The notes: a model not told the origin generated them from the letters alone. Counted from the whole stretch's first letter, positions 4,949-62,516 are shown. The stretch is DNA of 64,000 bases, filler included, from Stramenopiles sp. TOSAG23-3 (GCA_900128585.1; 10 parts of 10 records of this genome joined end to end with filler, not necessarily neighbours in it); one strand, 5' to 3'. Program-made: numbers and translations.

Positions 4949-5130
4949 GAATAAATACCTTTTTGTGTGATAATATATAATNNNNNNNNNNNNNNNNNNN
5001 NNNNNNNNNNNNNNNNNNNNNNNNNNNNNNNNNNNNNNNNNNNNNNNNNNNNTATTATACTCTTACAGGACAGCACGTACAAATATAATAACGTAACCGA
5101 TAAATATGAGAGAGGAGAAAGAGTGAGTAA

Positions 5131-10959: not shown

Positions 10960-11059
10960 NNNNNNNNNNNNNNNNNNNNNNNNNNNNNNNNNNNNNNNNN
11001 NNNTTAATTAATTAANNNNNNNNNNNNNNNNNNNNNNNNNNNNNNNNNNNNNNNNNNNN
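10960..11059. other. Artificial contig linker (N-run + TTAATTAATTAA + N-run); the same linker is at ~22051, 33073, 44071, 55053, 56866, 58679, 60491, 62302
   Basis: Identical six-frame-stop 12-mer inside N runs; the intervening contigs decrease in length. Confidence 0.97.
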
Positions 11060-24244: not shown

Positions 24245-25294
24245 ATGCCTAAACGAAAAAGAAAACCCTTAGTTGCGTTTGTGTTTTGCTGCAATGATGA
24301 GACTGAGCAAGAGTGTATAGACCGGTCTCTCTTTGGTGGCCGCGACGGTTTGTGGAACAATTGTGTTGGAGAAATTGTTCCCGGAACACCTTTACTGCTG
24401 TACAACGTTGACTCGAAAATTTGTCGAGGACCATATCATGCTGCCAGCGAGGCTGACGAGTGGGAACCAGATGCGTGGAATGGCGAGTTCAACGTCCAGG
24501 TGAAGGTGCAAAACGCAAGCACAGCGCAATGCAGGTCCTTTGTTGTCAACCCACGTCAACTGAGGCTAAACGGGAAGTTGACAGCAGTTAAATACGAGAA
24601 AATTCTCAACGATCACCTCTCTCCACCACCAAAGAAAAGGCTAGCTGCTTTTGTGTTTTGCTGCAACGACGAGACTGAGCAAGAGTGTTTTGACCGAGCA
24701 CTCTTTGGAGGTTACGAAACTGGGTTAGTACGGCAAGGGGTTGGCTTCGTGGAACCTGGATGCCCCTTACTCTTGTACAATACAGACTCCAAAAAATTGC
24801 GGGGACCTTACTTTGCTGCATCGACCGCGGGAAATCACGTACCAAATGCATGGGGCGGCCGCTTCTCTGCACAAATCAAAATCGATGCGTCACAGGGTTG
24901 GAAGGATGTGCGCGAGGTCACTGTGGATACATCCGAATTTAGAATAAACAACGGAAAGCTAAATAAAAAACGATATCTTAAAATATCCAGACATTGCCTT
25001 CAGTTCAACCCAATTGACAAGCTATCGACGATTCGCAAACTGGCGGGCAAGATGGGCTTAGTTGAAGTGTCCTGCAACCTTAGAAGCTGTGTCGCCGCCT
25101 TCAAAAACGGAGATGACGCACCAGTACCATGCAAATTTGAGATTTATTTTACAACTGGGACCGTGAAAACATGTATCAATCACCCCAGGCTGGGAAAGAC
25201 GCAGCTGTTTCGCAGAAATGTGGGTTTGGATGAGCTTAAAGCCATATTCGAAAACCCGCGTCGCCATACCAAAAAAGGGTATCGTAGAAGGTAA
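24245..25294 (+). CDS. Protein with two tandem DCD domains and a C-terminal NPRxHT domain
   Basis: Two copies of FVFCCNDETEQECxDRxLFG...PGxPLLLYN...GPYxAAS...PxAWxGxFxxQ; C-terminal YFTTGTV...HPRLGKTQLFRR...FENPRRHTKKGY. Confidence 0.8.
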   Translation: MPKRKRKPLVAFVFCCNDETEQECIDRSLFGGRDGLWNNCVGEIVPGTPLLLYNVDSKICRGPYHAASEADEWEPDAWNGEFNVQVKVQNASTAQCRSFVVNPRQLRLNGKLTAVKYEKILNDHLSPPPKKRLAAFVFCCNDETEQECFDRALFGGYETGLVRQGVGFVEPGCPLLLYNTDSKKLRGPYFAASTAGNHVPNAWGGRFSAQIKIDASQGWKDVREVTVDTSEFRINNGKLNKKRYLKISRHCLQFNPIDKLSTIRKLAGKMGLVEVSCNLRSCVAAFKNGDDAPVPCKFEIYFTTGTVKTCINHPRLGKTQLFRRNVGLDELKAIFENPRRHTKKGYRRR

Positions 25295-26704: not shown

Positions 26705-29700
26705 ATGAAGGGTGAGAAACGTGCAAATCTAGGAGGAAGAAAGGCGCACGATGCCTGCGCAAGTGCGCTGGCGAAGAGGCCGCAGTCGTTAGGACGAGTG
26801 CGCGGCGGGGACGGCTCGGTGTTTGGGCGGCAAGGCAGGGCTGCTGCGAGAACGAGCTTTTGCACGAAGCGGGCCTCGTTGCAGTGGCTTTTCGCTTTGA
26901 TGTTTGCGCTGGCGGCTGGGATGCCTTCTGCATTCGCGGAGGAATGGAACTGCTCGGCTACAGAGGGAACGTATGTGCGTTCAACGGACTGTACGATGAC
27001 CGACGAAGTTAAAGTTTCTGGAGACCTGACGGTGACGGGAAAAGAGAACATATACACGACTCTTTTTGCTGCCGCTGGGAAGAGGCATTTTAAGATCACC
27101 ACTGGGATACCTGCACTAAGATTGAAATGGTTGAACCTGACCGGTGGGGACGTCAGTGGTAATAGTTGTTGCATTGACAATAATGGTGGCTCCATTTACG
27201 TTTCTCACGTAGCCGCCCATTTGAACATATCCCATTGTGTCTTTTTCAATAATCGTGCTGGTTACGGTGGTGGTGCTGTTTATGCTTATGGTGGACAACC
27301 TCATCTTTTTTTCTCTTCCGTTTTGTTTGAGACCAATATTGCGAGTAGTATTGGAGGTGCGGTGTATTTATGGAATGGAAGATTCCAAGGAAAGGCGAAC
27401 ACGTTTAATAACAACACAGCAGTGTGGAATGGTGGTGCTATGTTCATGAACTCTCCTTCTGTCGTTTCCTCCACTGACTCCACTTTTCTAAAGAATACAG
27501 CAGGGAGAAGAGGTGGTGGTATTTATATCCAAGGTAATTTATTGGAAGGAAAGCCTTCTCAATTAAATCTAACGAGGGGTTTGGTAGAAGAGAACAAACA
27601 AAAACAAACAAAAGGGGGGACAGATGGTACTTATGGTGGGGGTGGAATTTATTTTAAACATGGAGTAACTGCGAATATTAGAGAGAGCACCTTCATAGGA
27701 AACGAAGCAACGACAGGATCAACAGGAGATAAGCATGGGCACCAGATTATGACGCATAAAGGTAGTTCCGAGATTCCCTCCATCGCAATTGTCAACACGA
27801 ACTTTACCGACCTCGCGGGATCTCATCCCTTCTACGGGCACGATGACAGCAGTTCCACCCACGGTGCAGCCAAATACGTAAGCCCGACGAACTGCACCTC
27901 CAACCCCTGCACAGCCCCACCTTTCACTGGCAGCTGCTTCCCCCGCGCCTCAGAACAGCAGGGTGTTTTCTGCGACTACGACAACTCCATTGCCTGCGCT
28001 GTGGGATCGTACAAGCAAAGTGTGAGTACCGCCAATGCCTTGCCCCCGGCAGAAACCGCCTGCGCGGCATCGAAGCCGAAGTGGGACTGCACCCGAAGCG
28101 CCGGAGAATTCCAGCGAAGCACGGACTGTACGATGGGAGACGAAGTTGATGTGTCGGGGGACTTGGTGGTGACGGGGAACGAGAACACGTATACGACACT
28201 TTTTGCTGCCACAGGAAAGCGCCATTTTAAGATCACCAGTGGCGCGCATACGCTGAGATTGAAATGGTTAAACATGACCGGTGGGGACATTACTGGTAAC
28301 AGCGGAGACAACGCAAAGGGTGGTTCCATTCATGTTTACAACAAAACTGCCCATTTGAACATATATCATTGTGTCTTTTTCAATAATCGAGCTACGTGGG
28401 GTGGTGCTGTTTTTGCTGATGGCGGATATCCTACTCTTACTTTTACAAATGTCCTGTTTGACTCCAATGATGCAATTTATGGCGGGGGCGCGTTACGAAT
28501 ACATGGCAAGACCGGCTCCACCGTCCGTTTCGTTGGCAGCGTCCTTCGAAATAATTCATGCGGAGTAGTGGGGGGTGGAATGGACGTCTCTGAGAGCAAT
28601 ATTATCATCATTCGGACGATGTTCGAACAGAATGTCGTTCGATCAACAGCAAGTGCGCCGTATTTTAGTGGTGCTAGCGGTGGTGGCGGTGGTGCCATAG
28701 CAATCCAAGGCAACGGAACTGGCATTGAGAATTGCTCGTGGATTTCATCCGTTGCAGCTAACGCGGGGAACAGAGAAGCGTTCTTTTACCCCGTAGAAAA
28801 TGCATTAAGCAGTAGCGGTCACCCTGCCATGTGGAGACATGGTACACCTGATAGTAACCTTTTGTTTCAATGCCAAGTTCTCCCAGCTAGCGTACGGACG
28901 GTCACTGTATCGTTGCCCTCAGCAGCGAAATGTTCAAATGTGCCCAATTTGCACACTGCACCGAGTTGCACAAATATTATTTTGAAGGGTGCAGACGAAT
29001 CCACGGTGTGGACTTCCGGCGGGAGTTGCGCAAACGCGGGCGATACTACGACGTTTGATGTTGACAGCATCGCGCAAGCTCACTTCATTGGAGTGTCGTT
29101 TTCGGCGACTGAAAGTACATGCGGCGACTATGTTGCGGGTATTTCATACTTGACGTTGACAAAGGAACAAACAGTCCCAACACTGCTAATTGAAAACTCC
29201 ATCTTTCTGCAAAATAGAGCTCGCAATTTCATTGGCCATCAGATCATGGCTTACGCCGGCATCATCAGCAAACATTTTTGTCATGTCACATTTGACAATA
29301 TTACTGAATCAAGCCCTAATATGTTGCCATTGGAGGTAGGGTTGAGCTCAGACAGCAACTGGGAGTACAATAAACCTTTGAAGAAAGTTACTACTACTGG
29401 TGCATATTCTACGACACTGTTTGGGCTGAACCAATATTTCAAAACCAACATAACATTCTCTCAATGCTGTGATCCAAGTGCTGCCTTCGTTGGAGTGCAG
29501 ACGGCACCAGCCACAACTGACAATAAACACGGTGGCACAAGCATAAATGGAAATGGGGTTCCTTACCAGTACCCTTGGCCTCAAGACAACGGAGTGCATG
29601 CTATTGAAATTGATATTCGTGACACAAAGATAGTATTTGATGGCAACTCTGAAGCATTGGGCTGGGGAAGCGAAAATAGTGCTGAACTTGCTCCGTACGG

Positions 29701-32700
29701 CGCGCCTTTGTTCTTCGGCGTATGGGACAGCGCCAGTGCAAATGGCAGGACAGCGGAGTTGCAATTTTTATCGGTCAAAATTATATACGATTACGACAAC
29801 AATATCTGGGGGGGCATGGTTGATACCGCAAACCATTTGCTTCCAGCAGAAACTGCCTGCTCATCGAAGTGGGACTGCAATCGAAATTCTGGCATCTTTA
29901 ATCGCACAGAAGACTGTCAGCTTGGCGACGAAGTGGCAGTAAGTGGCGATTTGAGCATTGAGGGGAAAGAGAACACATACACGACTCTTTTTGCTGCCGC
30001 TGGGAAGAGGCATTTTAAGATCACCAGTGGGCCGCACACGCTGCGGTTGAAATGGTTGAATATGACAGGTGGGAATGTCAGTGGTAATAGTGGTGGATTA
30101 ACTGACTATGAAAATAGTGGTGGTTCCATTTATGTATATGGCGTAGCTGCCAATTTGAATATATCCCATTGTATCTTTTTCAACAATCATGCCGAAGGTA
30201 GCGGGGGTGCTGTCTATGCTCATGATGGACAACCTAATATATTCTACTCGTTTGTTTTATTTAAAGCTAATTCGGCTGTCAAAGATGGAGGAGGGATTAT
30301 TTTATTAAAAGCATCCTACATTGGAATATCCAATGTATTCAACGGCAATACAGCAAGGTATGGCGGTGGGATAGCCATTCATTACAGTAAGGTGTCTTGT
30401 ACAAAATCTTCTTTTATATACAATAGAGCAATGAAAATGGGTGGCGGAATTTACATTAGAGGTGATTCCTCTAATGGTGCGTCGAAAGTAAATTTAACCC
30501 AATTAGAAATACGAGAAAACAAACAAACAAGTGAGGGGACAACCAATTGGTATGGGGGTGGTGGACTTTACTTATACTGGAAAGTGGCTGTTGATATTAG
30601 AGAGTGTAACTTTGTACGAAACGAAGCGAAGGCAAACACAGATGGGGAGAAACATGGGCATCAAATTATGACGCTTTATGGTAGTTCCTTGATACCCTTT
30701 ATCGCAATTGTCAACACGAACTTTTCTGGCCTTGCGAGAGACCATCCCTTTTACGGGCGGCATTATACCAGCTCATCCTATCCGAGCAGCAGTGGCGCCG
30801 ACAAATACGTAAGCCCGACGAACTGCGCCTCCAACCCCTGCACCGCCTCACCCTTTACTGGGGCGTGCACAGCCCACCCAATGGGCCCAAAGCGTGGCGT
30901 TCTCTGCGACTACGACAACGCCACCACTTGCCCGATTGGCTTTGACAAACGGTTGCCGCCTTCCGACCCCCCGACATGTCTTGAGTGCCTTATCCCCACC
31001 GTAGGAACTGTAGAGAGAAGTGCTGACTGCCAGCTGGGCAGCGAAGTGGCAGTGAGTGGCGATTTGAGCATTACGGGGAAAGAGAACACGTATACGACTC
31101 TTTTTGCTGCTACTGAGAGTCGGCATTTTAAGATTACCAGTGGCGCGCACACGCTGAGGCTGAAATGGCTCAATATGACGGGTGGGAATGTTGGGAGCAG
31201 TGATAATGGTGGTTCCATTTATGTCTACAACGTCGCTGCTCATTTGAACATATCCCATTGTGTCTTTTTCAATAATCGTGCCAGAGATGGTGGTGCTGTT
31301 TATGCTTCAGATGGACATTCTACTCTGCTATTCTCTTCTGTATTATTTGAATCCAATACTGCAATGTTAAATGGAGGTGCGGTGTATTTATACAGAGGAA
31401 CCTTTCATGGTGAATGGAATACATTTAAAAACAATACAGCAGGGCAGTTTGGTGGTGCGATGCGAATTTCTGTCGGTACTACAGCAGCAAGTACTGGTTC
31501 TATTTTTAGAAAGAATACAGCAGGATTATGTGGAGGTGGTATTTGGATCATTGGTGCTTCCCCCCTCTCTTCTCGATTGAATCTAACAAGGGTTCATTTG
31601 ATTGAAAACAATCAAACAAATGGGGGGGGAGATGTTTATTATGGTGGGGGTGGACTTTGTTTATGGCAGGGTATAAAAGTGAATATTAGAGAGTGTACAT
31701 TCGTACACAACGAAGCAACGATGGGAGCAAGTGGGGGGAAACATGGGCATCATATTACGACGACTAAATCTAGTTCCGACATTCCCTCCATCGCAATCGT
31801 CAACACGAACTTTACGGGCCTTGCGGGGGACCATCCCTTCTACGGCTACAATGGGAGCAGCGGCGGCGCCGAAAACTACGTAAGCCCAACGACCTGCACC
31901 TCCAACCCCTGCACCGCCTCACCCTTTACTGGAGAATGTTCCGATATGAACACCGGCGTCCTATGCAGTATTGCTAGCGATTACAGCCCGCAGTGCTCAT
32001 ATGGGCAAGTGAAAGCAACCGTCTCTAGAGCCCTGTTGCCCCCACGGCTTTGCGTGTGTCCAGAAAACACATACTTGAACGACTCGGTCTGCACGCCTTG
32101 TAAAAATGGTACCTTTACACGTTTTCCCTCCAGCATATTTGGAAACGAAAACCACGATCACATTTCAGACTGCCTCCCGCCGCCAATGATCCATAACATG
32201 ACACCGGAAAGCCCTGTGCCCAACAGCAGCACCGCCGTATCCTTTGCGGGAAATTTTGACGGGACTGTCATCGACTTGACCATGGGACTCGGCCAGTGGA
32301 CCAGCATCACAAGAATATCCCCCACAACAATCACGGCCGTACCGCCTCAAGGGATTACTGGGGAATTCTACTCACTCTACCTGACCGTAGACGGCATCCG
32401 AGCCACGGAGGCCTTTAATTTCTCCTACAGGGCTCCAAACATAACAGAAGTAAACTCCCCACCCTTCGCCGGAGGAACGGTCAAGATTCTTGGTGAGCAT
32501 TTCGGGTCCGCCCTAGACGAGATAAAGATATCCGTCTCTGGAGAGGGTGCCTGCCCCGTCCCCTGCGGAGAAACGCAATGGACCGAAGGCGGGGTTGCCT
32601 GCCTCTACGATGCTCCGGGTTCACAGGGCGTAACTATGAATGTCCGCCTCACGGTCGGCCCAGAGGGGCACGAGCAGCCGAGCAACTTGGCCACCTACCA

Positions 32701-33028
32701 ATACAAATTCGACAAGGGCACACTCACAGGCATACCGGAGGGACGGCAGCGCATCACCGAAGGCGCCAACCTGACCTACCGGTTGAGCTTGACCAGCAAC
32801 ATTGTTCCGAAGGATGACAATGTAACAGTGCAGCTCACAGCCTCTGGCTGCACCATAGCTCCGACGGATCTCACATTCTTAGTAAACCAAGAAGAGACGT
32901 ACTCGGTCATTATCAGTACCACCGACAACAAAGTGGACGAAGGAACGGTCATCGCCTACTCTTGCACCATCACCCACACAATCGAGACGACGGACCGGCA
33001 GTACAAAGACAATTTGCCGAGAGCCTTA
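26705..33028 (+). CDS. Giant secreted/surface protein with Pmp-like GGA/FxxN beta-helix repeats in four modules and IPT/TIG-like domains; 3' truncated by contig end
   Basis: >2100-aa ORF; signal-like LFALMFALAAGMPSAFA; many FxxNxA..GGAV/I repeats; four SGDL..GKENxYTTLFAA..RHFKIT..LRLKWLN modules; FSYRAPNITEV..GGTVKILGEHFG. Confidence 0.85.
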
Positions 33029-33129
33029 NNNNNNNNNNNNNNNNNNNNNNNNNNNNNNNNNNNNNNNNNNNNTTAATTAATTAANNNNNNNNNNNNNNNN
33101 NNNNNNNNNNNNNNNNNNNNNNNNNNNNC

Positions 33130-34191: not shown

Positions 34192-34609
34192 TTAACTTTT
34201 TTCATATTTTTAATTTAAATTCCTTTCTTCTTCTTCATTCTTATTCTTTCTTCTTTTTTTAATTTATTAAAATACTATATCAAATAAGTATTCTAAATAG
34301 TATATTAAGTATAATATTCGTTCTATAATATTACATTTTATTAAAAATAACAAAAAGAAACCATCNNNNNNNNNNNNNNNNNNNNNNNNNNNNNNNNNNN
34401 NNNNNNNNNNNNNNNNNNNNNNNNNNNNNNNNNNNNNNNNNNNNNNNNNNNNNNNNNNNNNNNNNNNNNNNNNNNNNNNNNNNNNNNNNNNNNNNNNNNN
34501 NNNNNNNNNNNNNNNNNNNNNNNNNNNNNNNNNNNNNNNNNNNNCCAGTGTCTCTTTACACCAACCACTTTGTCTCTCTCCGTGCATGTGTAATATTAAG
34601 TAAGAACGG

Positions 34610-43883: not shown

Positions 43884-44445
43884 GATTGTTTGTTTGTTCG
43901 TCGGTCTTAAAAAAACGGAGATGAAAGCTTTAAATTAGTATTCCTACCTGTATATATTCAACGTCTTTCAAATGTTAAAAATCTTTTGTTGCCTTCAAAC
44001 CCATTCCATCCCATCGTAATTTCTTTNNNNNNNNNNNNNNNNNNNNNNNNNNNNNNNNNNNNNNNNNNNNTTAATTAATTAANNNNNNNNNNNNNNNNNN
44101 NNNNNNNNNNNNNNNNNNNNNNNNNNAGAAGGGAACGTGTTTCGCACCACCACATGATAACTTTAAAATACCAGAAGTAACTATGATATTATGATATGAT
44201 GATATGATATACAATACGTATGGCAGTACGAGAAGAGAATAATTAATTTGTTTGGTGGAGTTTAAGACTAACATAAGTAACTGATTCGGATCATGCATGG
44301 AGCGTACGTCTGAGAATGATACAAGTACTGATAGTCAAGACTAAGTGACTAGGGTAGATTGATCAGTAAAACCACAAGAGCAGAGACAAGTGCGCAGTAC
44401 ATGAAGGAACGTAAACCTTTAATTGACAAATGAGCAGATTCATTT

Positions 44446-44515
44446 TCGCAGTTTAGTATTATACTATATATTTTGTTTTTTTTTAATTACTTAAATAACA
44501 GCCAATTTTCTTGTT
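44446..44515 (-). repeat. Dispersed 3'-end element copy with downstream ACTGCGAA box
   Basis: + strand TTAATTACTTAAATAACAGCCAATTTTCTTGTT at 44483-44515 and TTCGCAGT at ~44445. Confidence 0.85.
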
Positions 44516-44669
44516 ATGATATGATATAAAAATTTATCATACCTATTAAATACGCGCACGCGTACAGATCGTAAACAGGAAAACAAATATTTAAGTTTTA
44601 AAATTCAAAAAAAAGGCCGATTTATTTCTCTTCTTCATAACATGATTAAAGATTAAGCTTTCTTCGAAT

Positions 44670-45224
44670 TTAGTCGACGACGAAATGGCCGCCCTTTCCA
44701 AGCGCAAAATGGGAAAGACGGGTAATGGCGTCGTCCTTCTCGCTTACAAGTTCCTTGATTAAGTCCTTGATGGATAGCAACCCAACCGCCTGGCCACCCT
44801 CGTCGACTAATGGCAAATGACGAATATCCTTGCTTAACATCTTTGCCATGCAATCCTGAATCGTATCCTCTTTCGTGGCAACTACAAGATTCGCCGCGCC
44901 CGACGTCGCTATTTCCTTGATTTTCGTTTCTTTCGAAGTGCGGCCGAGTAGCGCAACTTTATTAATATAGTCTCTTTCCGAGATGACGCCAGACAGTTTT
45001 CCAGACCCGTCAACGGTAACCAGCGCGCCAATGTTGAACGCCGAGAATCGTTGCACGGCATCGAAAACGGTCAAGTCATCACTGATCGTATAATCAATGT
45101 TATTGTAACACGATTTTTCCCAGGCAGTAGATGCAGACGCAAGGGACGACACTGACTCCGGAGTCGAGGAAAACGCACTTCTGGCAGCCTTAGCCACACC
45201 TTTGCGTAATATGGATGGGAACAT
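44670..45224 (-). CDS. CBS-pair protein, probably mitochondrial (CBSX3-like)
   Basis: Presequence-like N-terminus; TVFDAV..NIGALV..GVISERDY and IRHLPLVD..GLLSIKDL. Confidence 0.88.
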   Translation of the reverse strand: MFPSILRKGVAKAARSAFSSTPESVSSLASASTAWEKSCYNNIDYTISDDLTVFDAVQRFSAFNIGALVTVDGSGKLSGVISERDYINKVALLGRTSKETKIKEIATSGAANLVVATKEDTIQDCMAKMLSKDIRHLPLVDEGGQAVGLLSIKDLIKELVSEKDDAITRLSHFALGKGGHFVVD

Positions 45225-46141
45225 CGTTTCGGTTTTGATAGGTTTGGACGTAACACTCAAAATTTAAGCTATAAAAAATCTATGTATCGAAAACTAACCT
45301 TTATGTGTTTTGCATGAATCGAACAGCCCTACATACGAGACGCTTTTATTTTTGTCATATCGAATACGTACACGTTAAAATTCTAATAATCTCTATTGTA
45401 ATATTTTAATATAACATACTCCTCCTCCTTCATTTTTTTTTTAATTAATAATGAAATATTAATAATACAATGCTGTGTAATATAAAATAATATATAAAAA
45501 AAGAACATTAATTCGATATTATTATTATCGGTTTCACAGCTAGCAGAAGGAAATTTATTAAAAAAATTATTATTATATTTGTTGTTATTTTATTATATTA
45601 AAATACCAGTAATAGCTGCGTGATGTATGATGTATTTATAATATTTAATTTAATAATTGACACACATTGTTTTTTTCTTTTTTTTATTTATTGATTTACA
45701 GACGACGGACGGACGGGGACGGACTGGATACTGACATACTGACGAATGATGACGCACGAATCAGCTCAGCAGAAAATGATAAAAATAATATAAAGATAAT
45801 AATAATAATAATAGAAGAAGCGCCAGAAGGAAGGGGTGGGGTCTGGTGGTGGTGTGGTGGTGTGATGAAGAATGAATAATGATGAGAAGAAATAATAATA
45901 TAAAAAATGCTGCTGCCTTTTTTTATTTTTGTGTAAAATAATAAAAATTCAATCAACTTCAATTCCACCATTCTAATATATATATTACGCACTAGATTAC
46001 ATTCTCCCTCCACGGACGTCATTACGGTAGAAAACAGGTTCAGTAAGAAAGCGAGAGACGGCTGAAGTAGAAATATAGAAGAAAAGAAACACGGACAAAC
46101 CGGGTCGACCTTCCTATTTTTGAAGCGCTTCTCTCGCCGCT

Positions 46142-46873
46142 ATGGTTGCTAACGTCGCAGCATTGCCAAGTGCGCAATATCACTTTGTCCGAATTGTGGG
46201 CTACTTGCTGTGCTTGTATGTGCTGGACTGCATTGTGTGTTGTACTAAACTTGGATCGATAGCACGGTGGCAGTCCCTTCACACCTTCGCAAACTTCTTC
46301 ATCTCGTGCTTTTCGGTTGGCGACTTCATAAGGACAATGATGGACCCAATAAGTTCGTGCCTGGGGGTTCCTGTTACTGGTTACTCGCTGCAACCTGTGT
46401 ATATAATAATTGCGCTGCACACGTACCACATGCTCCCTTTTCTAGGCTTTAGACTGAAAGCCGACGATTATTTCCATCATTTGCTGTTCGGTGGGGTCAT
46501 CGGAAGCGCTGGGGTTAGTGGTTTGGTTATACAAAGAACAGGGGCAATCCAGAACTTTGTTGCGTTTTTCATCTGCGGATTACCAGGATTCTTGGATTAC
46601 GCCATGCTAGTTATGGTGAAGCTTGGGTATTTTACGAAAGAGGAAGAAAAGACTTGGAACGCACGAATAAATGTATGGGTGCGGTCTCCCGGATTGATGG
46701 GATCTGCGTGCATTATGTACATAAGCGTCTTGTATGGTCCTTTGGAAAGTCCGTGTCGCGCGAAGCCAGTACTCACATTACTGTGCGCTTTTCTGATCCT
46801 TTTCAATGGCCAGTATTATCTTCAAGTGGTCGTTGGGAACACCTTCCGAAAAGTGAAGACTTACAATTCTTAG
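46142..46873 (+). CDS. TLC-domain-like membrane protein, paralogue of the 19140 gene
   Basis: HTYHMLPFLGFRL, DYFHH, FICGLPGFLDYAMLVMVK and VWVRSP. Confidence 0.75.
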   Translation: MVANVAALPSAQYHFVRIVGYLLCLYVLDCIVCCTKLGSIARWQSLHTFANFFISCFSVGDFIRTMMDPISSCLGVPVTGYSLQPVYIIIALHTYHMLPFLGFRLKADDYFHHLLFGGVIGSAGVSGLVIQRTGAIQNFVAFFICGLPGFLDYAMLVMVKLGYFTKEEEKTWNARINVWVRSPGLMGSACIMYISVLYGPLESPCRAKPVLTLLCAFLILFNGQYYLQVVVGNTFRKVKTYNS

Positions 46874-47233
46874 ACCGCGCAGTAGGTACGCGCTCGCCTG
46901 GGTCGGCAATGGCAACGAAGGCCCATCAATGGTGTGGCAGCTCGCAGCAGAATGTAATTTTCCAGTGTGCTAATTAAGATTACACCAACTTTTAAAGAAG
47001 TACAAGCACAACTTTTAAAATTGTTTTATCCCATAAAAAATATACCGATCATTATTTGATTGAGCAGTATGATATCATACCACAGACAACGAGCCCCTTT
47101 AAAACATTTATGCCGCTGTGTACTTTTCAGACCAATCAATTGGAATCTTGACCAGAACTTGGGGAGGATCTGCAATATAGGAGGAGACATTGTTCTTGAA
47201 CTGACACCTTCTTTTTTCTTTGTATATATATAT

Positions 47234-47273
47234 TTTAATTACACTATAAATAACAGCCAATTTTCTTGTTTTT
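47234..47273 (-). repeat. Dispersed 3'-end element copy
   Basis: TTTAATTACACTATAAATAACAGCCAATTTTCTTGTTTTT, ~50 nt after the renalase stop. Confidence 0.85.
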
Positions 47274-47323
47274 AAAAAATATGTTTTTTTTTTCTATGAT
47301 ATCATATGGGATAAAAACTTGTC

Positions 47324-48484
47324 TCACAATGACGACGATGCAACATCAGAATGGTGTCGACTGGACAACCAGCGGTTGACCATCTCTGCCGCTTCCTTTC
47401 CGCTTCGCACACAGTTTTCAAAATTGCTTCCCGCAATAGAATCTCCTGCAACAATAAGTAAAGGACCATTTTCTTCGGTATCGACATTTAGTGCGGAAAA
47501 CGATTCTGCCTCGAACCCTGCGCCTACTTCAGTCCCCGGCCGGACCTGAGAGTACTTCCAATGAATAAGTTTCGTGCCTACGGGCATCACCCCGTCTTCT
47601 GTAAGCTTTGGCAAAAATTTCCCTATTTTTGGAAGAAGCTGGTTTAAAATTTCTTCTCTGGTATCTCCCGAGTGCTTCAGTGACCATGGGACCCCGCAGT
47701 GCGCCACGACGACCGGGCCAGGACCACCCTCGCTCCCTTCCAAAAAACCGCGTTTCTTGGATTCCAGAGAAAGCCATACAAGGGCGTCGTCTTCATCCTT
47801 CCTTACATACCTAGCTACCCACGGCGCCTGTTCGATCGCAGGCCACGCATTAAAGGGGTAATATATGCCAAGTGCCCACCTACTTGAAAACTGAACCCCA
47901 TTTAGTTTTTTTCCATGGAAATCATTGTTCAAAAAGTGCCGAACATTCCCACCAATACCCAAAGCTTGCGCAGCGGGTATTGACAGAACAACGGCGTCAA
48001 ATTGTTCAATATTTTTCTCCGTGTCCGTTACTTTCCACGCCGAGTGTGTTTTGTCGATAGAAGAGACGCGCCGGTTGTACTCTACGTGCGTGTCACCAAT
48101 GAAGTGTTTGACAAGTGAAGATATTCCCCTAGGGGCAGCATAGTGAAGTTTTGAATCGTGACCGTCGCGCGTATTTTCAATATTCCCAGTCAGTTCAATC
48201 AAAAGGTTCTGCCGAAGCAAATTGTCGTAGTGGAAAGGACTTTGAGCGTCCAAGGCGTTCCCACCACCAGCGTCTACTGTAATGTATTGCGCACCAAGAT
48301 CAACGTGCATTCTCGCATCAGTGCTAGACCGAGATGTTGACATACGACCTCCAGCACCCCTCGATTTGTCCCATACAGTTATCGACAGTTCAGAGGAAGA
48401 AAGTGTCGTTCGAAGTAAAGCGGCAGTCGTCGCGCCAGAGATCCCCGCCCCCACAATCAGCAGGCGGGGGGTTGCTGCAGCCAT
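47324..48484 (-). CDS. Renalase-like FAD-dependent oxidoreductase
   Basis: IVGAGISG, WDKSRGAGGRMSTSR, DLGAQYIT, HWKYSQ and AGDS...NFENCVRSG. Confidence 0.9.
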   Translation of the reverse strand: MAAATPRLLIVGAGISGATTAALLRTTLSSSELSITVWDKSRGAGGRMSTSRSSTDARMHVDLGAQYITVDAGGGNALDAQSPFHYDNLLRQNLLIELTGNIENTRDGHDSKLHYAAPRGISSLVKHFIGDTHVEYNRRVSSIDKTHSAWKVTDTEKNIEQFDAVVLSIPAAQALGIGGNVRHFLNNDFHGKKLNGVQFSSRWALGIYYPFNAWPAIEQAPWVARYVRKDEDDALVWLSLESKKRGFLEGSEGGPGPVVVAHCGVPWSLKHSGDTREEILNQLLPKIGKFLPKLTEDGVMPVGTKLIHWKYSQVRPGTEVGAGFEAESFSALNVDTEENGPLLIVAGDSIAGSNFENCVRSGKEAAEMVNRWLSSRHHSDVASSSL

Positions 48485-48952
48485 GAGAAAAAACGCAAAC
48501 AAGAACGATATTATTACAATCAGGTTCAAAGGCAACGAATTGGTGTGCATAACTTTTTGTGGTGAGGTGTAGCTGCTCGCTGAAATTTTGCCTCTTTGCT
48601 CGGAGCGCGAAGGACCGTGCGTACGATTCGATTTGGGGTATCGACCGATAAAATAGAAGAAGAACGGAATATTATTAATAAATATAGTAGTATTATAATA
48701 TATTTTTTTTAGATATTGATGATCGTCGATTTTGTGTGTTCCTGTTGTGTTGGTGTTGTTGTTGTTCTTTTTTTCTTCTTCTCATCATCCTCTTCTTCTT
48801 TCTTCTTTTCCATCATCCATTTCTTCTTTTTTTTTGCTTCTTCGAATTCGATTCTGGATAATATCATTTAAGTCTTTCTTATCACTATATAATAAATTCC
48901 AACAATATAGACTACTATATTATACAATATTTATAAAAACTATAATCCTTAA

Positions 48953-51900
48953 TCACCGTCTTCCTCCTGCAGTTTTAGAAAGGCGGCTTAGCTTGCTCTT
49001 CTTTCCACCTGCAGGGGTATTGTTTCGAGACAAAGCCGGCATGGACATGGGCGTATTCAAGCGGTTCTGGTTAGCATTGTTTGCTGGTGTCGAGGGAAAC
49101 GAACTAGCATCGAAGGTGTTTGGCGTTCCACTTCTAGAAAACGAATCCGAACCGTACGCGGTGGACGATGCGGCCGTCGAGCCCCGAGACTTGAGGCCGG
49201 GGAACCGAGACTTTGCTAAACCTGTGCTTCCGCGTGTATTCGACCTTTTCCCCTTTCCCCTGCTTTTGCCACCATGCCTTCGCATGCACACTTCTGTTTC
49301 GTGCAACTCCCTGTCCTTTTCTCGCATTTCAACCCCGCAGCCTAGAGAACAATTTACGATTCGCATGGGGCACGAATGCTTTTCGTGCGTTTTAGCCTTC
49401 CCTCTTATGACCAACGTGCCACATCCGAAGCTGCAGTACATTTGCGCCTTTTTACATTCCGTGTGGACATGCTTTGCAACCTCGTCTGCAAACATCTTTC
49501 TGGGGCACCGAGGACACTGCACTTCTCGTTTTGCGCAGTCGTTTGCTTTGTGGTTGGGAAGCTCGTTCAGTGGAAGCTGTAGTCCGCAGCCGTTCCCACA
49601 GTTGACGGGCCGGAAAGCACAATCATGCTCTTCGTGCTGAACTTTGTCGGATACAGTCATTTCCAAGCCACATCCTAGGGAACATGTATAAGACTTCTTC
49701 GTGCACTCTTGTTCTACGTGCTTTATGACGTTGCAGAATGACACTTCGTATCCACAAGCAAGCGGGCATGCAACGGGGCGGTAATCACAGTCGTGCTTTA
49801 TGTGATGGCTCATTTTTGACAACCTTAACCTCTCTCCACATTTATTTTTGCAGTCTACAACCCGTTGTATACAATTGACCCCTTCGTGTGTCGGGCGCTC
49901 TTGAAACTGCATCTTTTTCCCGCAATGCAGCCGGCACATTACCTCTCTAAACAAACAATGGTCTTCCGTGTGCTCTTTTAAATCCCTCCACATCATTTCT
50001 TTGCCACAACCAAGGTTGCAGCGAACTATGCGAAGATGGCATTCCATGAGGCAGTGTTTGTTTTGGTCCTTGTATTTGAGGGACAACCCGCACCCCAACT
50101 TGCACAACACCTGACGGTGCTTACAGTCGACATGCATGTGTCGCTCTAATTCTTGGAACTCCATTTTTTTTCCACAATGAAGCTTGCACTTAATTACTCG
50201 CCGACGGCAGTGCTTTTTCACATGCTTCACCATTTCATCCTCTGAAATCATCAATTTACATCGCAGAATGCAAGGGAGTAACCGCTTTTTACATTCGTGG
50301 CGCTGGTGCTGCTCTAAATCTTGCGCCCAAATATGCTCGGTTCCACACTTCTGCGGGCATTCTACTTCACGTTTCGGACACTCCTCAATTTCATGGGCAG
50401 GAATTTCTTCTTTGGGCAACTTTTTGCCACAGCCAAGTCCGCATGTGTACAAAATAATAGCCTTGCCTTTGTTCGCTCGGGCCAGGCCATAATTCCCAGA
50501 TCTTGCATTATAAATGTTTCTGGCAACCCCCGTAAAATTATTTGCAAGCGCCCAGTCAATAGCATTCTTACCAGACTTGTCCTCTTGGAATGGGTCTGCC
50601 CCCCGCTCAATAAGTAGCCGCACAGCGTCATTTTGGCCGTTCATGGCAGCATGCAACAGAGCCGTTTTACCATCTCTGGCAACCCGGTTGATTTCGGAGG
50701 CCCTGTCCAACAGCACCTCGATTGTTCGGACGCGACCATTTTTTGCTGCCCAGGAAAGCGCCGTATACCCTTGCTTGGTTTCATGGTCTATGTTTGGCCT
50801 TCGCTCTTCCCTGTCCAGCAAGAGCTCGACTGCCGGAGTCACAGTGCCGTCTTGGTTTACCGATGTTATTTCGCATGCTGCTGCCATTGTTAAGGGAGTG
50901 TGACCAAAACTATTTTCAAAGTCGCACGACGCACCTTCTCGAATAAGGCGGTCGACTTCGTTGAAGTTGCAGTCGTTTACAGCTCTGCCGCATTGCTCGT
51001 CCAGCTTCTTTAGGGTCTCGATTTCGTTTTTTGCGAGGAGCCAAGATTCCCGATGTTCAATCCATTCCTTTATTGCTTCGTCATTTCGGCGCTGGATTTT
51101 CTCCACGTATTCAAGCGTATATGTCCACCGGTTCCGAATGATCCATCCCCTTCCATCTTGCCAATGGTCGTGCCCGTGGTTCTTTTTACCAAGCTTTGCA
51201 CATTCATAAGCATTTAATGGCGTCTCCAGATGGTAAACGATTGGTCCATATTTTGGAATCTGGGCTTCCGTGGCCGTGCCACTATCCAAAACAAACGCTG
51301 GAAACAGGTGAGGCGGGGGGGCTGTGGGGTAAAGCCCAGTTTTTCTTGACAGGTTTGACCCTCTTCGAACCAGGCTTTGCACCGTTTCTAGGTGGCCGTT
51401 GTAAGCGGCCTCGGTCAGCGCCGACCGCACTTGAAGCCGCACCTTTCTTATCTGGGAGACGAAATTTCGCATCTGGAACATGTGTGCAATTTCCGCCATT
51501 TTAAACTTCAATGCAACCAATTTATGCCATTTGCCTCGATTACGCTTGTACTGGACAAAACGCCACTGTGCTTGTATAAGTTTTGCTGCCAACTGAATAT
51601 GGTCGTCTTCATAGGTTACACTTGCGCCGTGGTCTATCAAAATTTCAACCATATCCGTCTTGCCGTTCATAGCAGCCCATGTCAATGCGTTGTGGCCACC
51701 CTCGCTACGGTAAGCAAGCAGCTCTGCAACGCGAAGGTGCTTGTGGGTGCTGTTCAGGGTGGTTTCTGCCTCGCTAAGTTCTAGCCTATAGTCATCTAAA
51801 ACGTTGATAATAACGTTGCATTCAGAAAACACGCGGCGATAGGCTTCGCGGGCCTGCCACAAGTTCACGTCGAGGGTCTCATATTCTACGCGCAGCTTCG

Positions 51901-54900
51901 ATTCCTTTTCCTCCTTCGGTGCAAACTCGTGCTTCAAGCTATTGTAGGTTTCTACTGTACGAATCCACTTTGACATAAAACGCATAAAGTTATACCGTGG
52001 TTCATCGTACTCATCGTCCCCTGATTCCTTCGCCTCCTCGTCGTCTTCGTCGCTACTGTTTCCTTCGTACGTATACAAGAGCAAAGGGTTACTCGTGAAA
52101 TGCTCTTTCAAATGGTTTAGCTGTTCTTCCTCCAAATCTATCTTGATTTTTCCTTTATTCCAGTAAGAACGAAAGAAATTTGCCTGCTTCATAGTTTTTG
52201 TCCCGGTTCCCCACCAATCATCTTCCATAAGATTTGTCCGGGGATTTCTCTTTCTTTTGGGTTTTATCTCTAACATAAAACACGCAGCTTTCATAATGAG
52301 AGCAAATTGTTCTGTGGGATACTTGATATCACAGGATGCCCGAATCTCGTGGTTTTTCAGTCGTTGGACTTGAAACAGCACATCGTCTATTTCTCCTTCT
52401 ATGTAATCTTTCGTCTTCTGCACTTCTTCGTGTATGATATCTGCCTCTGCCTTCATTTTAGCTATTTTCTCCTCTGTATCTGTGATTACCTTTTTCCGTT
52501 TGTTAAGTTCTGGCTGTTTGGTTTCGAGGTCTTCTTCTAGGTCTCTGATTTCTTTCATCGCGTTTGCCCGCTTTATCCGTGCTTTTTCCACCCGTATCCT
52601 CATCTTTGGAATTGCATTAAACTCGTGCTCAATGCCCTCCTTCACCATTTTGTACATTTCATCAAATCGGTCCATCAAAATATGATTTAAAAGTTGTCGG
52701 TGCCGATTTTGCATATTGGAAATGTCGGCAAGCTGTTGGTACTCGTCACTTTCGACCCCAAATTTAATGCGTGCCCAGTCCATGGCGTTTCTCCTGAACT
52801 TGTTTCTGTAGTCAATAATCGCGCCTTGTTGCGCCAAAAACAGGGCTATCTTCGTCCGGCCTTCTTTAATTGCTTCTATTAGCGGGGTATATCCTCTGGA
52901 TGTTTCTCCGTCCATGTTTGCACCTCTGACAACAAGAAGCTTGGCGGCCTTCAGCTGACCTTGGTTGCAGGCATGTACGAGGGCAGTTTGGCCTACATCT
53001 GATTCGTGGTCAATATCAACACAGTTTGTTCTAACCAGCAAATAGTCCATCAAATCCAGTTCTCCGCGGCCAGCCGCCCATATTAAAGCTGTGCTTCTAT
53101 GAGCTTCGCAAAGCTGTAACCGGCCAAGCCCGTTTTCAGTATCTCCAACCAACCACATCTTTATTTGCCTGTCGCATTCTTTCATTCTCTGCCCGCATGA
53201 TATTCTGCGGTTTGGACACAAATTTAAATGGAATTTGACTTCTTCAGACACCAACGTATCTCCACATTCAAGTGGGCACGGCACACCTCTTCTAATGCAT
53301 TCTTCTTCTTCATGATTTCTTTTGTTTTTATGGAGAACACTTAAGCCGCACCCCAGGGCGCACATAGCGTACCGATTTTCACAATGATTGTGTTCATGGT
53401 CCTCCATTAAACTCCATTTAAACTTAGCAGGACAGCCTTGAGGGCATTTAACAACGCGCTCAGGGCAATGGTAGGTAATGTGGTCGTGCATTAGCGACTC
53501 TTTCATTTGGTCGCCGCATCCGATGGAGCAAGAAATTAATCTTTCGATGCATGTGTCCTCCACGTGTTCGTCTAACTCGCACGCTTTGCACATTGTACCG
53601 CACTGCAATGGGCATGGTAACAGCCTATATGGGCAATCGTTTTCGATATGGTTTGAGCATTCTTGGGACCACATTTTTTGAATATCACAACCCAACGGAC
53701 ACTTTACTATTCGTTTGTCGCACTCGTCGTTATAATGTTTTTCCATATGGGTTATCGGGACAGACACCCCACAACCCCGACGGCACGAAATCAATCGTGC
53801 GTCGCATTCGGACTTTATGTGCTCTTCCATTTCACAATACGGTATGTATTGCAAGCATTCGCAGAATACTTTTCGATAAACGCACTCGGTTTCCTCGTGT
53901 TGCTGTAAATCTTTGCTGGCCATTGTACGCCCGCACCCTTGGGTGCATGCTACTTTCAGCATGCGGCAGTTCTCGTTCTCATGTTTCACCAGAAATCGGC
54001 CTTCCATCAATTGGCCGCATCCATTCCGGCACTTCAGCAGTCTGTGGGGACAACACGTCTCGTTGTGTTCCCGCCTTTCGTTCTCCAGCATCATTTTGCA
54101 GTGCCAGGGCCCGTTGTCGATGATGTCAAAGCGTAAGTCACACAGTTTTGCCCAAAACCTTTCTGAGTGAGTGTTGATAAACCGATGGTGGCCGTCCTCG
54201 TTTCTAAAGTGTGTGGCACGAGCAACAAACGAATAAGAATCTTTTTCTGTAAAAAAGCCTCCGGGTTCATCTACAGTTGCCAGATCGAAGTGTGGACTCG
54301 TTTTGTAAATTCGAATTCTCTTGTTTATGTATTCGTACTGGCAGTGCAGGGGGCGCTTTGGGCACTCTGCATGCTCTGCTTTGTCGCCCCCTACGCCATG
54401 CAAATGAATGTGCAGCAGTTTTGCTTTCAGCATCTTTCCGCACCCATACGTACATGGAACCAGGCGTTCTTGGCACAAATTTGTCTCGTGGTCTTCCAGA
54501 TCTTGGGCCCTAATTCCCATAGTGTTGCAACCTAAATGACATTGGACAATGCGCAACCCACATACCCACATCTCATGAATTTTGCGCCGATCCTGGGGGG
54601 CGAGATTCACTCCACAGCCCCATCTACACGGTTGAAGACAGGTCAAATTCATATGATCTTCGAGCTCTTCAAATCGGCAAACCACACCACAATTGTAACC
54701 GCAAGGTACTAAACGTTTGGGGCATTCGGTTTGTAGATGATGCACCATTTGATTAACTCGTAAATCGTGACGCCCACAATTTAAATCACACGAAACTATC
54801 CTGAACGGGCATTCGTTTTCTTCGTGGAACGGCCGGGCGTCCCACGGAAACGTTTCTCCGCAGTCATCGTGCACCCTACATGTCACAATTCGCTTTTTGC

Positions 54901-55008
54901 AGAACTTTGTTGAGTGAAAAACTAATTTTTTATGCTCCATTTTTACCGTGCAACCAAAGTAGGAGTTTGTGCACATGACAATTCTGTTTTCGCAGTGTTT
55001 CTCTTCGT
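48953..55008 (-). CDS. Giant TRAF-type zinc-finger / ankyrin / IQ protein with dynein stalk-like insert; 5' truncated
   Basis: Numerous CxxxCG..H...CxxRxVxC units at both ends; ankyrin TAL/TPL repeats; IQAQWR; frame open to the contig end. Confidence 0.88.
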
Positions 55009-55157
55009 NNNNNNNNNNNNNNNNNNNNNNNNNNNNNNNNNNNNNNNNNNNNTTAATTAATTAANNNNNNNNNNNNNNNNNNNNNNNNNNNNNNNNNNNN
55101 NNNNNNNNGGTAATAATAATAAAAAAAGAGAAGATGACGACAATACTACTATTATAA

Positions 55158-56585
55158 TTGGGGGGGGTGTTTGGTGTTGGGAAGGAGGGTCCTGCGCCCG
55201 CGGTGAGGAAACGAAAGTTAGGGGTGGGATTTTTGGACGCCGGTGGTAAAACGGGCGTGTGTGCCTCCTTGGACTGGCTCGGGGATTTTCACGTGAGCGG
55301 CGGCGACAGTCCGCTGGACGGGGGGTCGTTCGGGGGTGACGAGGAATTGGTATGGGGCCAGCTGGCGGGCGGTGACCTGGTGGGAAAGGTAGACGGCCTG
55401 GACGGGTCAATTTTCGACGACATGCTGGGGCCCCTTTCGCCTGTGGCTACGGGGAAGAGCCCAAAGCGGCAGCGAAGGGAGCGGGCGGGGAGTCTGGCCT
55501 CGATCGAGGGGACGTCGTCCGCGCTTTCGTCCGTCGACGCCCCCGCGAACAACAGCGTCCCAGACTTTCTGGACCCCCTGCTCCCCGGTGCGGCGAGCCT
55601 GGTGACGTTCACGGTCCCCTGGACGGAGGAGGAGGACGGTGTCATTCGGCACGGGGTCGCGGACAAACTGTCGTGGCCCATGATCTCCCAACAGCTGATC
55701 ACTCGGAGTAGCACACAGTGCTCGCAGCGTTGGCGAAAAGTCCTGGACCCGAGCATCAAGCGATTCGTCAAGTGGACGAAGGAGGAGGACGCGACGCTGG
55801 TCCGGCTCCACAAGGAGCACCGCACCATGTCGAACAAGAAGATGGCGGGGTTTTTGCCCGGGCGGACGCCGACGCAGTGCCACAACCGGTGGGTGGAGGT
55901 CCTGAACCCGGACATTCGCCGGGGGCCGTTCACCCAGGCGGAGGACGAACGGCTGCTCGAGCTTCGGGGGACGGGGATGGGCTGGAGCGCCATCTCGAAG
56001 GAGCCCGAGTTCTTCGGGCGGGCGAACGTGTCCCTGAAGAACCGGTGGCGGACCCTGGAGCGGCGGCGGACGTACGTGAAGAAGAAACCGCCCAAGCCCG
56101 CCGCGAGCCGAAAGGTCGTGGACCCCCGGCGGCGGCGGTGGATGCCCGAGGAGGACGCCCTCCTGCTGAAGCTGCACCAGGAGCACCCGGAATGGTCGAG
56201 CAAAGAGATCTCCTTGCACTTCCCGACCCGAACCCTGAAGCAGTGCCACAGCCGTTGGATGGAGTGCCTGAACCCGGAGATACGGCGGGGGCCGTTCTCG
56301 AAGGAGGAGGACGCCCTTCTCATGCGCCTGAGGGGCAGCGGAAAGGGGTGGGCAGACATGGTGCAGGACCCCGTTTTGAAGAATCGGAGCTACACGGCCT
56401 GCAAGAACAGGTACCGGAGCATCATGCGGGAACGAAAGCGCGAGAAAGACCGTGCGGAGAAGGGCCGCACGAGCCAACCACCCAAAGGGTCCTCCGCCTC
56501 GCTGCCCCTGTTGTTGGCGTTGCCGTCAGAACCAACGGTGGTGCCAAGTGTGAAACAAGGGCACGACGATGGCCTGCCGCATTGA
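55158..56585 (+). CDS. Myb-family protein with five repeats; 5' end uncertain
   Basis: WTEEED, WTKEED, FTQAED, WMPEED and FSKEED with QCxxRW / KNRW helices. Confidence 0.85.
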   Translation: MGGVFGVGKEGPAPAVRKRKLGVGFLDAGGKTGVCASLDWLGDFHVSGGDSPLDGGSFGGDEELVWGQLAGGDLVGKVDGLDGSIFDDMLGPLSPVATGKSPKRQRRERAGSLASIEGTSSALSSVDAPANNSVPDFLDPLLPGAASLVTFTVPWTEEEDGVIRHGVADKLSWPMISQQLITRSSTQCSQRWRKVLDPSIKRFVKWTKEEDATLVRLHKEHRTMSNKKMAGFLPGRTPTQCHNRWVEVLNPDIRRGPFTQAEDERLLELRGTGMGWSAISKEPEFFGRANVSLKNRWRTLERRRTYVKKKPPKPAASRKVVDPRRRRWMPEEDALLLKLHQEHPEWSSKEISLHFPTRTLKQCHSRWMECLNPEIRRGPFSKEEDALLMRLRGSGKGWADMVQDPVLKNRSYTACKNRYRSIMRERKREKDRAEKGRTSQPPKGSSASLPLLLALPSEPTVVPSVKQGHDDGLPH

Positions 56586-57443
56586 TCCGGGGAAGAAGAG
56601 AGAGGGAAACAGTTGAAAATTTGAAAAGGATTCAGTCGGTGTGGTGGTATTAGCAAGAGAGAGTAAATAATAAATGTGAGAAAAAATGAGTTTTTTAATT
56701 TTGTAAATTGAAGAAACTAAACTCAGCAGGGTTGTGAAACTATACGGAAATCGTTTAAGGGCAAAAAACTTTTTAATTTATATTCTCAATTTTCCAAGTC
56801 TTCCTGCCTTTTTCCATTCTTNNNNNNNNNNNNNNNNNNNNNNNNNNNNNNNNNNNNNNNNNNNNTTAATTAATTAANNNNNNNNNNNNNNNNNNNNNNN
56901 NNNNNNNNNNNNNNNNNNNNNTGCTGATTTTATGAATGAATCCTTGGCAGCTGTTATTTTTATACTTGTTAAGAACAGCAGCTGGCCAATAATGCTTTCC
57001 TCCAATCAATCCGCCCTAAAGCGTTATATATGTACTAAAATACAATTACATTTTATACATAGGCCACCAGAAGGACAATATATATGGAAAGTTAGAAAAT
57101 TACACACAACGGATGATTTCCATTCGCATTCAGTTGTCATGCACCTGGTAGCGTCGTTGACCTGGGTGTCACGTCGACATATATCACTCACTGTGAGAAG
57201 AAACTTAAACACAACTACTGCCAATGTTTTGTTTATTTATAAGTATAGTTACCAGGTATATTATATATATACGTATACTTCATTCATAATCCACCTACCA
57301 AGGTACCTACCTCACCACATATTTATATAATAAAAATACACCTTTTATTTCTTCTTCTTCTTGTTTTGTTATACTCCTCGTATATATATAGCTAATACTA
57401 GTATACTGCCCAAATAAAGGTCCAAAACAATCATCCTATTCCT

Positions 57444-58331: not shown

Positions 58332-58734
58332 AGTAACTGTGTTGGTAAATTTTTCTTCAATTCATCAAAACCTTGATCCCAATCGAAATCCTTACTGCCT
58401 TCTTGATGATATAATTCTTCTACAGAAGAAGAACCATAGTTCACTTCTTCCTCATCTTGTGACGATTGACTCTCGCGACTTTCCAGTCATTTCTTGAGAT
58501 ATTCGCATAGAGGTTTGAGATTGTAAAGAACAGCGACTTAAAATGTAGTGAGTCCAGTCCAGTTCACAAGGCGTAAATTACGTCAATTCAGACGAAGAAA
58601 ACCTGTACTTCGAACCGAGGAGTAAAGCATTTAGNNNNNNNNNNNNNNNNNNNNNNNNNNNNNNNNNNNNNNNNNNNNTTAATTAATTAANNNNNNNNNN
58701 NNNNNNNNNNNNNNNNNNNNNNNNNNNNNNNNNN

Positions 58735-60446: not shown

Positions 60447-60547
60447 NNNNNNNNNNNNNNNNNNNNNNNNNNNNNNNNNNNNNNNNNNNNTTAATTAATT
60501 AANNNNNNNNNNNNNNNNNNNNNNNNNNNNNNNNNNNNNNNNNNNNC

Positions 60548-62257: not shown

Positions 62258-62516
62258 NNNNNNNNNNNNNNNNNNNNNNNNNNNNNNNNNNNNNNNNNNN
62301 NTTAATTAATTAANNNNNNNNNNNNNNNNNNNNNNNNNNNNNNNNNNNNNNNNNNNNTACATTCTAATGTAATACTACCACGCAGTATTCTACGATGCAC
62401 GTTCAATACTTACAAAATCACCAAAAAAAATTTGGGAAGTGAAAAGGTCTCTTTCGACAATTTCTCATCATATCATCGATGATCATCATTGCTTTGAAAC
62501 ATTTGTTACTAAACAC

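Follow-up and report, generated by a model that had tools for sequence, protein, structure and literature searches.

Can a dynein stalk, the coiled-coil hairpin that carries the microtubule-binding domain (MTBD), exist in a protein that has no motor? The question is raised by a minus-strand open reading frame (ORF) in a 64-kb window of Stramenopiles sp. TOSAG23-3 (GCA_900128585.1; the window is the whole stretch of DNA that we analysed, 64,000 nucleotides of contigs joined by filler), in which TRAF-type zinc fingers and ankyrin repeats surround a module resembling such a stalk. Dynein stalks occur across eukaryotes, and in dynein the AAA+ ring sets stalk affinity by sliding the two coiled-coil strands (CC1 and CC2). 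To our knowledge, the stalk and MTBD have been described only within the dynein motor, and a search of openly available full-text literature turned up no other protein reported to carry a dynein stalk. The gene belongs to an uncultured marine eukaryote and encodes a scaffold protein of very large size that is not a motor; along its whole length, the stalk of this protein is homologous to that of dynein heavy chains, with a likeness far beyond chance. That the homology and the absence of a motor hold together is, in our judgement, nearly certain. The module itself is well known; the architecture is new.

The find lies on the contig that occupies positions 44127-55008 of the window, whose genes are compact, intron-free, eukaryotic and placed on both strands. 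They encode a CBS-domain protein, a membrane protein, an amine-oxidase-like flavoprotein, and the one very long ORF under study:

48953..55006, minus strand: TRAF-zinc-finger/ankyrin/dynein-stalk ORF; stop codon at 48953-48955, 5' end cut by the contig end at 55008.

The first ATG is at 54976, so that 48953-54976 encodes 2007 aa (residues are numbered from this ATG below), and the frame is open to 55006. A first-pass annotation of this DNA had described a protein of more than 2000 aa with a dynein-stalk-like module set among ankyrin repeats and TRAF fingers. A protein of that length is indeed present as one ORF, but it is 5'-truncated by the contig end. Full-length, near-identical forms from independent public assemblies have 2634 aa, and contigs of 21-22 kb encode the same protein; 2002 of the 2007 ORF residues are identical to one such form, P0040, of which the ORF represents residues 628-2634. 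For the missing 627 N-terminal residues, tblastn of longer homologues across the window gave no further match, and they lie past the contig end. In the full-length protein, ankyrin repeats are followed by about 16 TRAF-type zinc fingers, ankyrin repeats, a helical linker, and the complete dynein-type stalk. A single ankyrin repeat follows the stalk; next are an IQ-like helix, further ankyrin repeats and a second series of about 14 TRAF-type zinc fingers, and the protein ends in a basic tail.

Homology to dynein was already visible with a single sequence. A phmmer search against all PDB chains (E<=10) matched 24 sequences, the 19 best of which were axonemal dynein heavy-chain chains, each aligned in the stalk (best 8glv_Me, E 1.9e-7). 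Among unrelated coiled coils, UspA1 and two tRNA synthetases came closest with E 0.16-1.1, and cytoplasmic dynein-1 was not significant (E ~2). An exhaustive phmmer search over 1.84 billion cluster representatives (cut-off E<=1e-3) returned 35 proteins: 21 carry Pfam PF12777 plus, where long enough, dynein AAA domains; six (P0005, P0008, P0018, P0021, P0031, P0033) carry Ank and/or zf-TRAF and no PF12777; and eight are short and without a Pfam family, six of these being plainly fragments of the ankyrin/TRAF family. A word-indexed protein search gave only three close relatives, the diverged members being reached by the exhaustive search. In the ESM Atlas, the best scores (0.81) were driven by ankyrin repeats and are uninformative on the stalk. 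The identity of the module to dyneins is only 21-29%. A profile of the stalk regions of 10 family members (alignment A1, 22-68% identity to the window sequence) matched DNAH12 in the PDB at E 1.7e-30, with profile positions 47-350 aligned to DNAH12 residues 2534-2809, that is, CC1, head and CC2. The next matches were DNAH3, DNAH7, DNAH1 and DNAH6, together with heavy chains of Chlamydomonas, Leishmania and T. brucei, and isolated MTBDs were matched as well (dynein-c 2rr7, 9e-20; DNAH7 6rza, 5.7e-20). In hhalign, A1 aligned to six dynein stalk fragments with a probability of 99.7% (E 6.5e-27, 264 columns). The CC1-MTBD-CC2 pattern that the first-pass annotation had read from the sequence is thus borne out by single-sequence, profile and profile-profile comparison.

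Predicted structure also gave matches to dynein heads and stalks. The rows of the structure comparison, each with its three values, are:

8i3j: 19.4; 4.5; 273/277
3wuq: 17.8; 4.1; 260/263
5ayh: 17.1; 3.5; 251/254
3err: 16.7; 3.5; 192/527
6rza_X, microtubule-bound DNAH7 head: 13.2; 3.0; 159/163
6rzb_C: 11.9; 2.5; 146/149

The dynein MTBD was therefore matched significantly by profile and by hhalign, and by structure as well. When the 10 family sequences were aligned jointly with 15 dynein representatives in their PF12777 regions, all of these dyneins having a flap-length loop, the two groups were collinear over CC1, H1-H2, the H2-H3 flap and CC2. The H2-H3 loop equals that of the 15 dyneins in length, save for an 8-residue insert in P0031. 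Motifs common to the family and the dyneins are KxP and MxAxC in H1/H2, DP and DxWG in the loop, KWxxxxxxY in H6, and APK at the start of CC2; their family forms (KYP, IMKAxC, DPR, DWWG, KW..V..Y, APK) are the best-conserved columns of the family. CC2 runs parallel with dynein until one column before the dynein LGGEKxRW, where the family turns into an ankyrin repeat, and the profile match starts at CC1, such that dynein homology stops exactly at the two stalk bases.

The module is a hairpin of about 300 aa between ankyrin repeats, composed of CC1, a six-helix globular domain and CC2. Its parts, with AlphaFold2 (AF2) elements and the predicted local distance difference test (pLDDT) of the model, are:

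52364..52612, minus strand: CC1, residues 789-871, one 83-residue helix; AF2 H47-129, pLDDT 90-95.
51920..52354, minus strand: globular MTBD homologue, H1-H6, residues 875-1019.
52217..52273, minus strand: H2-H3 flap LEIKPKRKRNPRTNLMEDD, a basic beta-hairpin, residues 902-920; AF2 strands E165-168/E175-178.
51992..52081, minus strand: acidic disordered H5-H6 insertion, residues 966-995, with an SSDEDDEE run; pLDDT<50 at model residues 229-250.
51713..51919, minus strand: CC2, residues 1020-1088, about 70 aa, from the conserved APK to LRVAELL; AF2 H254-346.

The span 51740-52620 first marked for this module corresponds to residues 786-1079, that is, CC1, the globular domain and most of CC2, and the peptides quoted for it all occur in the one minus-strand ORF (IEGEIDDVLFQ from residue 859, at 52402; DDWWGTGTK from 919; FMSKWIRTVETY from 1000; KEEKESK from 1021). 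CC1 (~83-100 aa) aligns without gaps to CC1 of DNAH12 and of the 15 dynein stalks. The AF2 model of the A1 profile alignment (mean pLDDT 79.6, coiled coils 90-95) gives in order the 83-residue CC1 helix, H1, H2, a beta-hairpin, H3-H5, a disordered stretch, and a 93-residue helix of H6 and CC2; it is an antiparallel coiled-coil hairpin capped by the H1-H6 bundle. A larger model of 911 residues (610-1520; pLDDT 75.2) places the ankyrin block, a non-ankyrin helical linker, the stalk, an ankyrin repeat, the IQ-like helix, a long helix and more ankyrin repeats in this order. The flap is strongly basic (KPKRKRNPR, similar in relatives), more so than in the aligned dyneins, and the MTBD core minus the acidic loop is net basic (22 K+R vs 14 D+E). 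At the H3 position after the WG motif, which we take to be one that contacts tubulin, seven of eight family sequences have K or R. The only family-specific addition is the acidic Ser-rich H5-H6 loop, which varies in length within the family and has 13 D/E per 40 residues in its region.

Among dyneins, the stalk is closest to that of the flap-bearing, single-headed inner-arm axonemal class. Inner-arm axonemal dyneins (DNAH12/3/7/1/6, Chlamydomonas dynein c; 8i3j, 6rza, 2rr7) have the same CC1, H1-H6, CC2 topology, flaps of equal length and the common motifs, and are the best matches in both sequence and structure; among the matches listed, the human heavy chains were DNAH1, 3, 6, 7 and 12 (five). 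Lacey et al. (2019, PMC6629372) describe the flap as a 13-residue H2-H3 insert in five human axonemal dyneins (not necessarily the five just listed), which forms two beta-strands and reaches the neighbouring protofilament, and state that cytoplasmic dynein lacks it. In the family model, the H2-H3 loop of dynein-equal length forms a beta-hairpin with strands at 165-168 and 175-178. The cytoplasmic dynein-1 stalk (3wuq, 5ayh, 6rzb), flapless according to PMC6629372, is matched by the single sequence at the insignificant level given above. In contrast to the inner-arm dyneins, the family protein is without AAA+ ring, linker, tail and C-terminal domain, its stalk bases lead into a helical linker and an ankyrin repeat rather than into AAA4 and AAA5, and it adds the acidic disordered H5-H6 loop of about 30 residues and a more basic flap.

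What surrounds the stalk is not a motor. None of AAA_6, AAA_7, AAA_8, AAA_9, Dynein_heavy and DHC_N2 was found in the ORF or in three full-length homologues; more generally, no AAA or dynein Pfam family appeared in the ORF or, at E<=0.01, in any of these three proteins (2590-2646 aa). PDB matches to the 275 aa after the stalk were ankyrin repeats only. Given the absence of AAA ring, linker and tail families and an ankyrin-only sequence after CC2, the protein is not a dynein heavy chain. The first-pass annotation had noted that no AAA motor was visible in more than 2000 aa, and both this and its wider proposal of a dynein stalk in a motor-less TRAF-zinc-finger-ankyrin protein are upheld. The flanking features are:

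53141..54976, minus strand: N-terminal TRAF-type zinc-finger array (Pfam zf-TRAF), residues 1-612 from the first ATG.
52772..53119, minus strand: ankyrin block before the stalk, residues 620-735; best Pfam Ank_2 stretch 631-723, AF2 helix pairs.
52613..52771, minus strand: helical linker from the ankyrin block to CC1, residues 736-788; family-conserved, without a counterpart in dynein.
51602..51703, minus strand: ankyrin repeat directly after CC2, residues 1092-1125; ankyrin matches at profile positions 340-385.
51527..51595, minus strand: IQ-like helix QLAAKLIQAQWRFVQYKRNRGKW, residues 1128-1150; a helix in the AF2 model.
50501..50896, minus strand: third ankyrin block, residues ~1361-1492; best Pfam Ank stretch 1435-1467, and AF2.
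49262..50443, minus strand: C-terminal TRAF-type zinc-finger array, residues 1512-1905, followed by a Ser/Thr/Pro-rich basic tail.

The dynein match begins at profile position 47, so that the helical linker lies outside it. zf-TRAF (PF02176) is found in the ORF with E 2.3e-65 in 17 stretches (12-16 stretches in full-length forms), and units found by a C..C..H..C regular expression at residues 2-567 and 1512-1876 place fingers on both sides of the centre, in agreement with the arrays at both ends that had been noticed at first. Pfam ankyrin families likewise lie on both sides of the stalk module, and the Pfam scans reported no RING or MATH domain. The family therefore shares strong PF02176 and ankyrin matches with TRAF-type zinc-finger/ankyrin scaffolds, yet no described member of these with a dynein stalk was found in the literature searched. 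The IQ motif of the first-pass annotation fared less evenly: an IQxxxRxxxxK-like helix with invariant A, Q, R, R and W columns across seven sequences is there, but residues 1110-1175 match no Pfam family at E<=10, IQ (PF00612) included. The tail (48956-49261, minus strand, residues 1906-2007), basic and rich in Ser, Thr and Pro, has at its very end a conserved ...LSKTAGG in common with P0003 and P0004.

How might such a protein have arisen, and what might it do? We consider it rather probable that a complete dynein stalk was captured by a motor-less scaffold and is now a passive microtubule-binding foot, the predicted binding being part of this estimate. The module would have been captured (copied) from the gene of a single-headed inner-arm dynein, a donor assignment that is based on the ranking of matches and on the flap. 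Capture from dynein is the parsimonious direction, because dynein stalks span eukaryotes while the family is narrow and resembles a derived dynein subclass. The stalk would act as an ATP-independent foot about 10-12 nm from the protein body, its base clamped by fixed helical and ankyrin elements instead of a moving AAA ring. CC1/CC2 registry sets affinity in dynein; with a static stalk base, the registry would be fixed, much as in engineered synthetase-MTBD chimeras. Contacts with the acidic surface of tubulin, spanning two protofilaments, would be made by the basic flap and the net basic core, and tubulin binding is probably retained because flap and head are basic. Candidate regulators are the acidic Ser-rich loop by H6, whose SSDEDDEE run is presumably casein-kinase-2-like, and the IQ-like helix at the stalk base; they could respond to phosphorylation or calmodulin, or act by self-masking. 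Partners may be bound by the zinc-finger rods and ankyrin blocks, and the protein would then be a tether or cross-linker anchored on microtubules. That it binds microtubules, is controlled by calmodulin and lies in cilia is a prediction. The closest artificial parallel is found in the seryl-tRNA-synthetase-MTBD fusions (3err; constructs in PMC6629372), which are laboratory-made, have a shortened stalk and fix the registry, whereas the family consists of natural genes with a near full-length stalk.

More tentatively, the protein may be a motor-less dynein foot in a fuller sense, an autonomous, transferable stalk-MTBD, taken by a protist lineage from an inner-arm dynein gene and set on a rigid zinc-finger/ankyrin strut to form a passive microtubule link, possibly gated by Ca2+/calmodulin or phosphorylation. 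Such a foot could link to doublet or cytoplasmic microtubules, for example as a nexin-like inter-doublet tether, or alternatively it could act as a brake, occupying B-tubule protofilaments in competition with the inner-arm dyneins that use them.

Several observations weigh against a microtubule-binding foot. The Pfam MT stalk model, PF12777, does not match the ORF at E<=1 or residues 780-1085 at E<=10, so that the HMMER check suggested in the first-pass annotation came back negative, and a Pfam scan of the module alone returned only coiled-coil noise (ADIP, E 0.019). The acidic loop of 30 residues beside H6 occurs in none of the 15 dynein stalks and could block or change the binding surface. 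The predicted template-modelling score (pTM) of the 911-aa model is only 0.40, and this model gives the order of elements, not their spatial packing at the stalk base. In addition, the RNA-library contigs described below are no strict proof of transcription, as DNA carry-over is possible.

Of the competing explanations, the one that survives best is that the stalk is a rigid coiled-coil spacer, or that its head binds something else than tubulin, and that the protein is a scaffold for signalling or for the ubiquitin pathway without a microtubule role. We regard this as doubtful, though it deserves weight. It would fit the family-specific acidic insertion next to H6, the low identity to dyneins and the failure of PF12777 to recognise the module, and both the TRAF-type fingers and the ankyrin repeats belong to module types that bind proteins of many kinds. 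However, the best-conserved columns of the family are precisely the motifs common to dyneins, the flap is full-length and more basic than in the aligned dyneins, the core is net basic, and a mere spacer would have no need of a conserved head.

A second explanation, that a dynein piece was joined to an ankyrin/TRAF gene in a fragmented assembly or by gene prediction, is very unlikely and close to refuted. The window is indeed a chain of short contigs, and in one predicted protein from the library, P0034 (383 aa), a dynein stalk fragment is fused to a bacterial solute-binding domain; this metagenome prediction is probably chimeric. Nevertheless, the order ankyrin - stalk - ankyrin - IQ-like helix recurs across at least six diverged clusters (22-75% identity) from ENA, JGI, NCBI, EukProt and an ocean-survey set, where the public names are only 'ankyrin repeat protein' or 'hypothetical protein'. 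The independent 21-22 kb contigs encode the same 2634-aa protein, and no AAA4 or AAA5 sequence lies beside the stalk. Contigs from RNA libraries point the same way: 15 of them, from four libraries of four studies (one poly-A), match the gene with 0-1 mismatches, and contigs from different studies cross both junctions of the module without mismatch, namely 52536-53065, from the ankyrin block into CC1, and 51586-51782, which takes in part of CC2, the ankyrin repeat and the start of the IQ-like helix. Others cover CC1 into H1 (52339-52625) and H4, H5, the acidic loop, H6 and the first CC2 codons (51913-52185). Coverage is patchy, at 4-12 of 30 bins per run, and the uncovered parts are uninformative. 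Stalk DNA is also present in marine metagenome runs of many studies: 14 runs hold at least half of the sampled words, two of which may be the source itself, and six metatranscriptome runs are positive too.

To a decayed dynein heavy chain whose AAA domains have degenerated beyond recognition we give hardly any credence: the very large size and the complete stalk would suit it, but the flanks are readily recognised by Pfam, with high scores, as ankyrin repeats and TRAF zinc fingers, and they are conserved in the family. A chance or convergent likeness, in which a coiled-coil hairpin with a small helical knob merely resembles dynein, is just as improbable, the sequence evidence having decided the matter.

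A family that keeps the entire stalk without the motor would show that the module folds, and probably works, on a foreign base, and that domain shuffling has reached even a highly integrated part of dynein. For dynein specialists this would be surprising. Nature would have arrived at a fixed-base construct of the type that structural biologists had to engineer, and the family could provide a simple means of studying how microtubule binding is tuned by registry, by the flap and by a nearby acidic loop. If the protein is a motor-less foot in the fuller sense, it would be a natural experiment on fixed stalk registry and microtubule affinity. The finding further suggests that marine protists, abundant but uncultured, have a microtubule-associated scaffold not described before. 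Routine annotation is blind to the module, because the proteins are named only 'ankyrin repeat protein' and Pfam misses the stalk.

The window as a whole strings together ten or more contigs, ordered from longest to shortest, with N..TTAATTAATTAA..N linkers between them:

10960-11059, 22007-22106, 33029-33128, 44027-44126, 55009-55108, 56822-56921, 58635-58734, 60447-60546, 62258-62357: contig linkers, N-runs around TTAATTAATTAA.

Since the window is made of joined contigs, features are not to be read across these linkers. N-runs also occur at 4982-5052 and 34366-34544, where they resemble gaps within scaffolds. Other genes of the window include, on the plus strand, a HECT ubiquitin ligase with fibronectin type III and WW domains (6472-9291) and a 729-aa protein with a tubulin-binding cofactor C (TBCC) domain and many weak Tudor/SH3-like repeat matches, which are unusual TBCC partners (12010-14199). 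A Development-and-Cell-Death (DCD) domain protein is encoded at 24245-25294 (plus strand); this domain family is known mainly from plants and could be of use in placing the organism. At 26705-33028 (plus strand), an ORF of more than 2100 aa runs into a contig end and has Chlamydia-PMP-type repeats and a right-handed beta-helix, probably as a giant secreted or surface protein. A separate 1.7-kb contig carries a GC-rich Myb-repeat protein gene (55422-56585, plus strand), opposite which there are long spurious ORFs.

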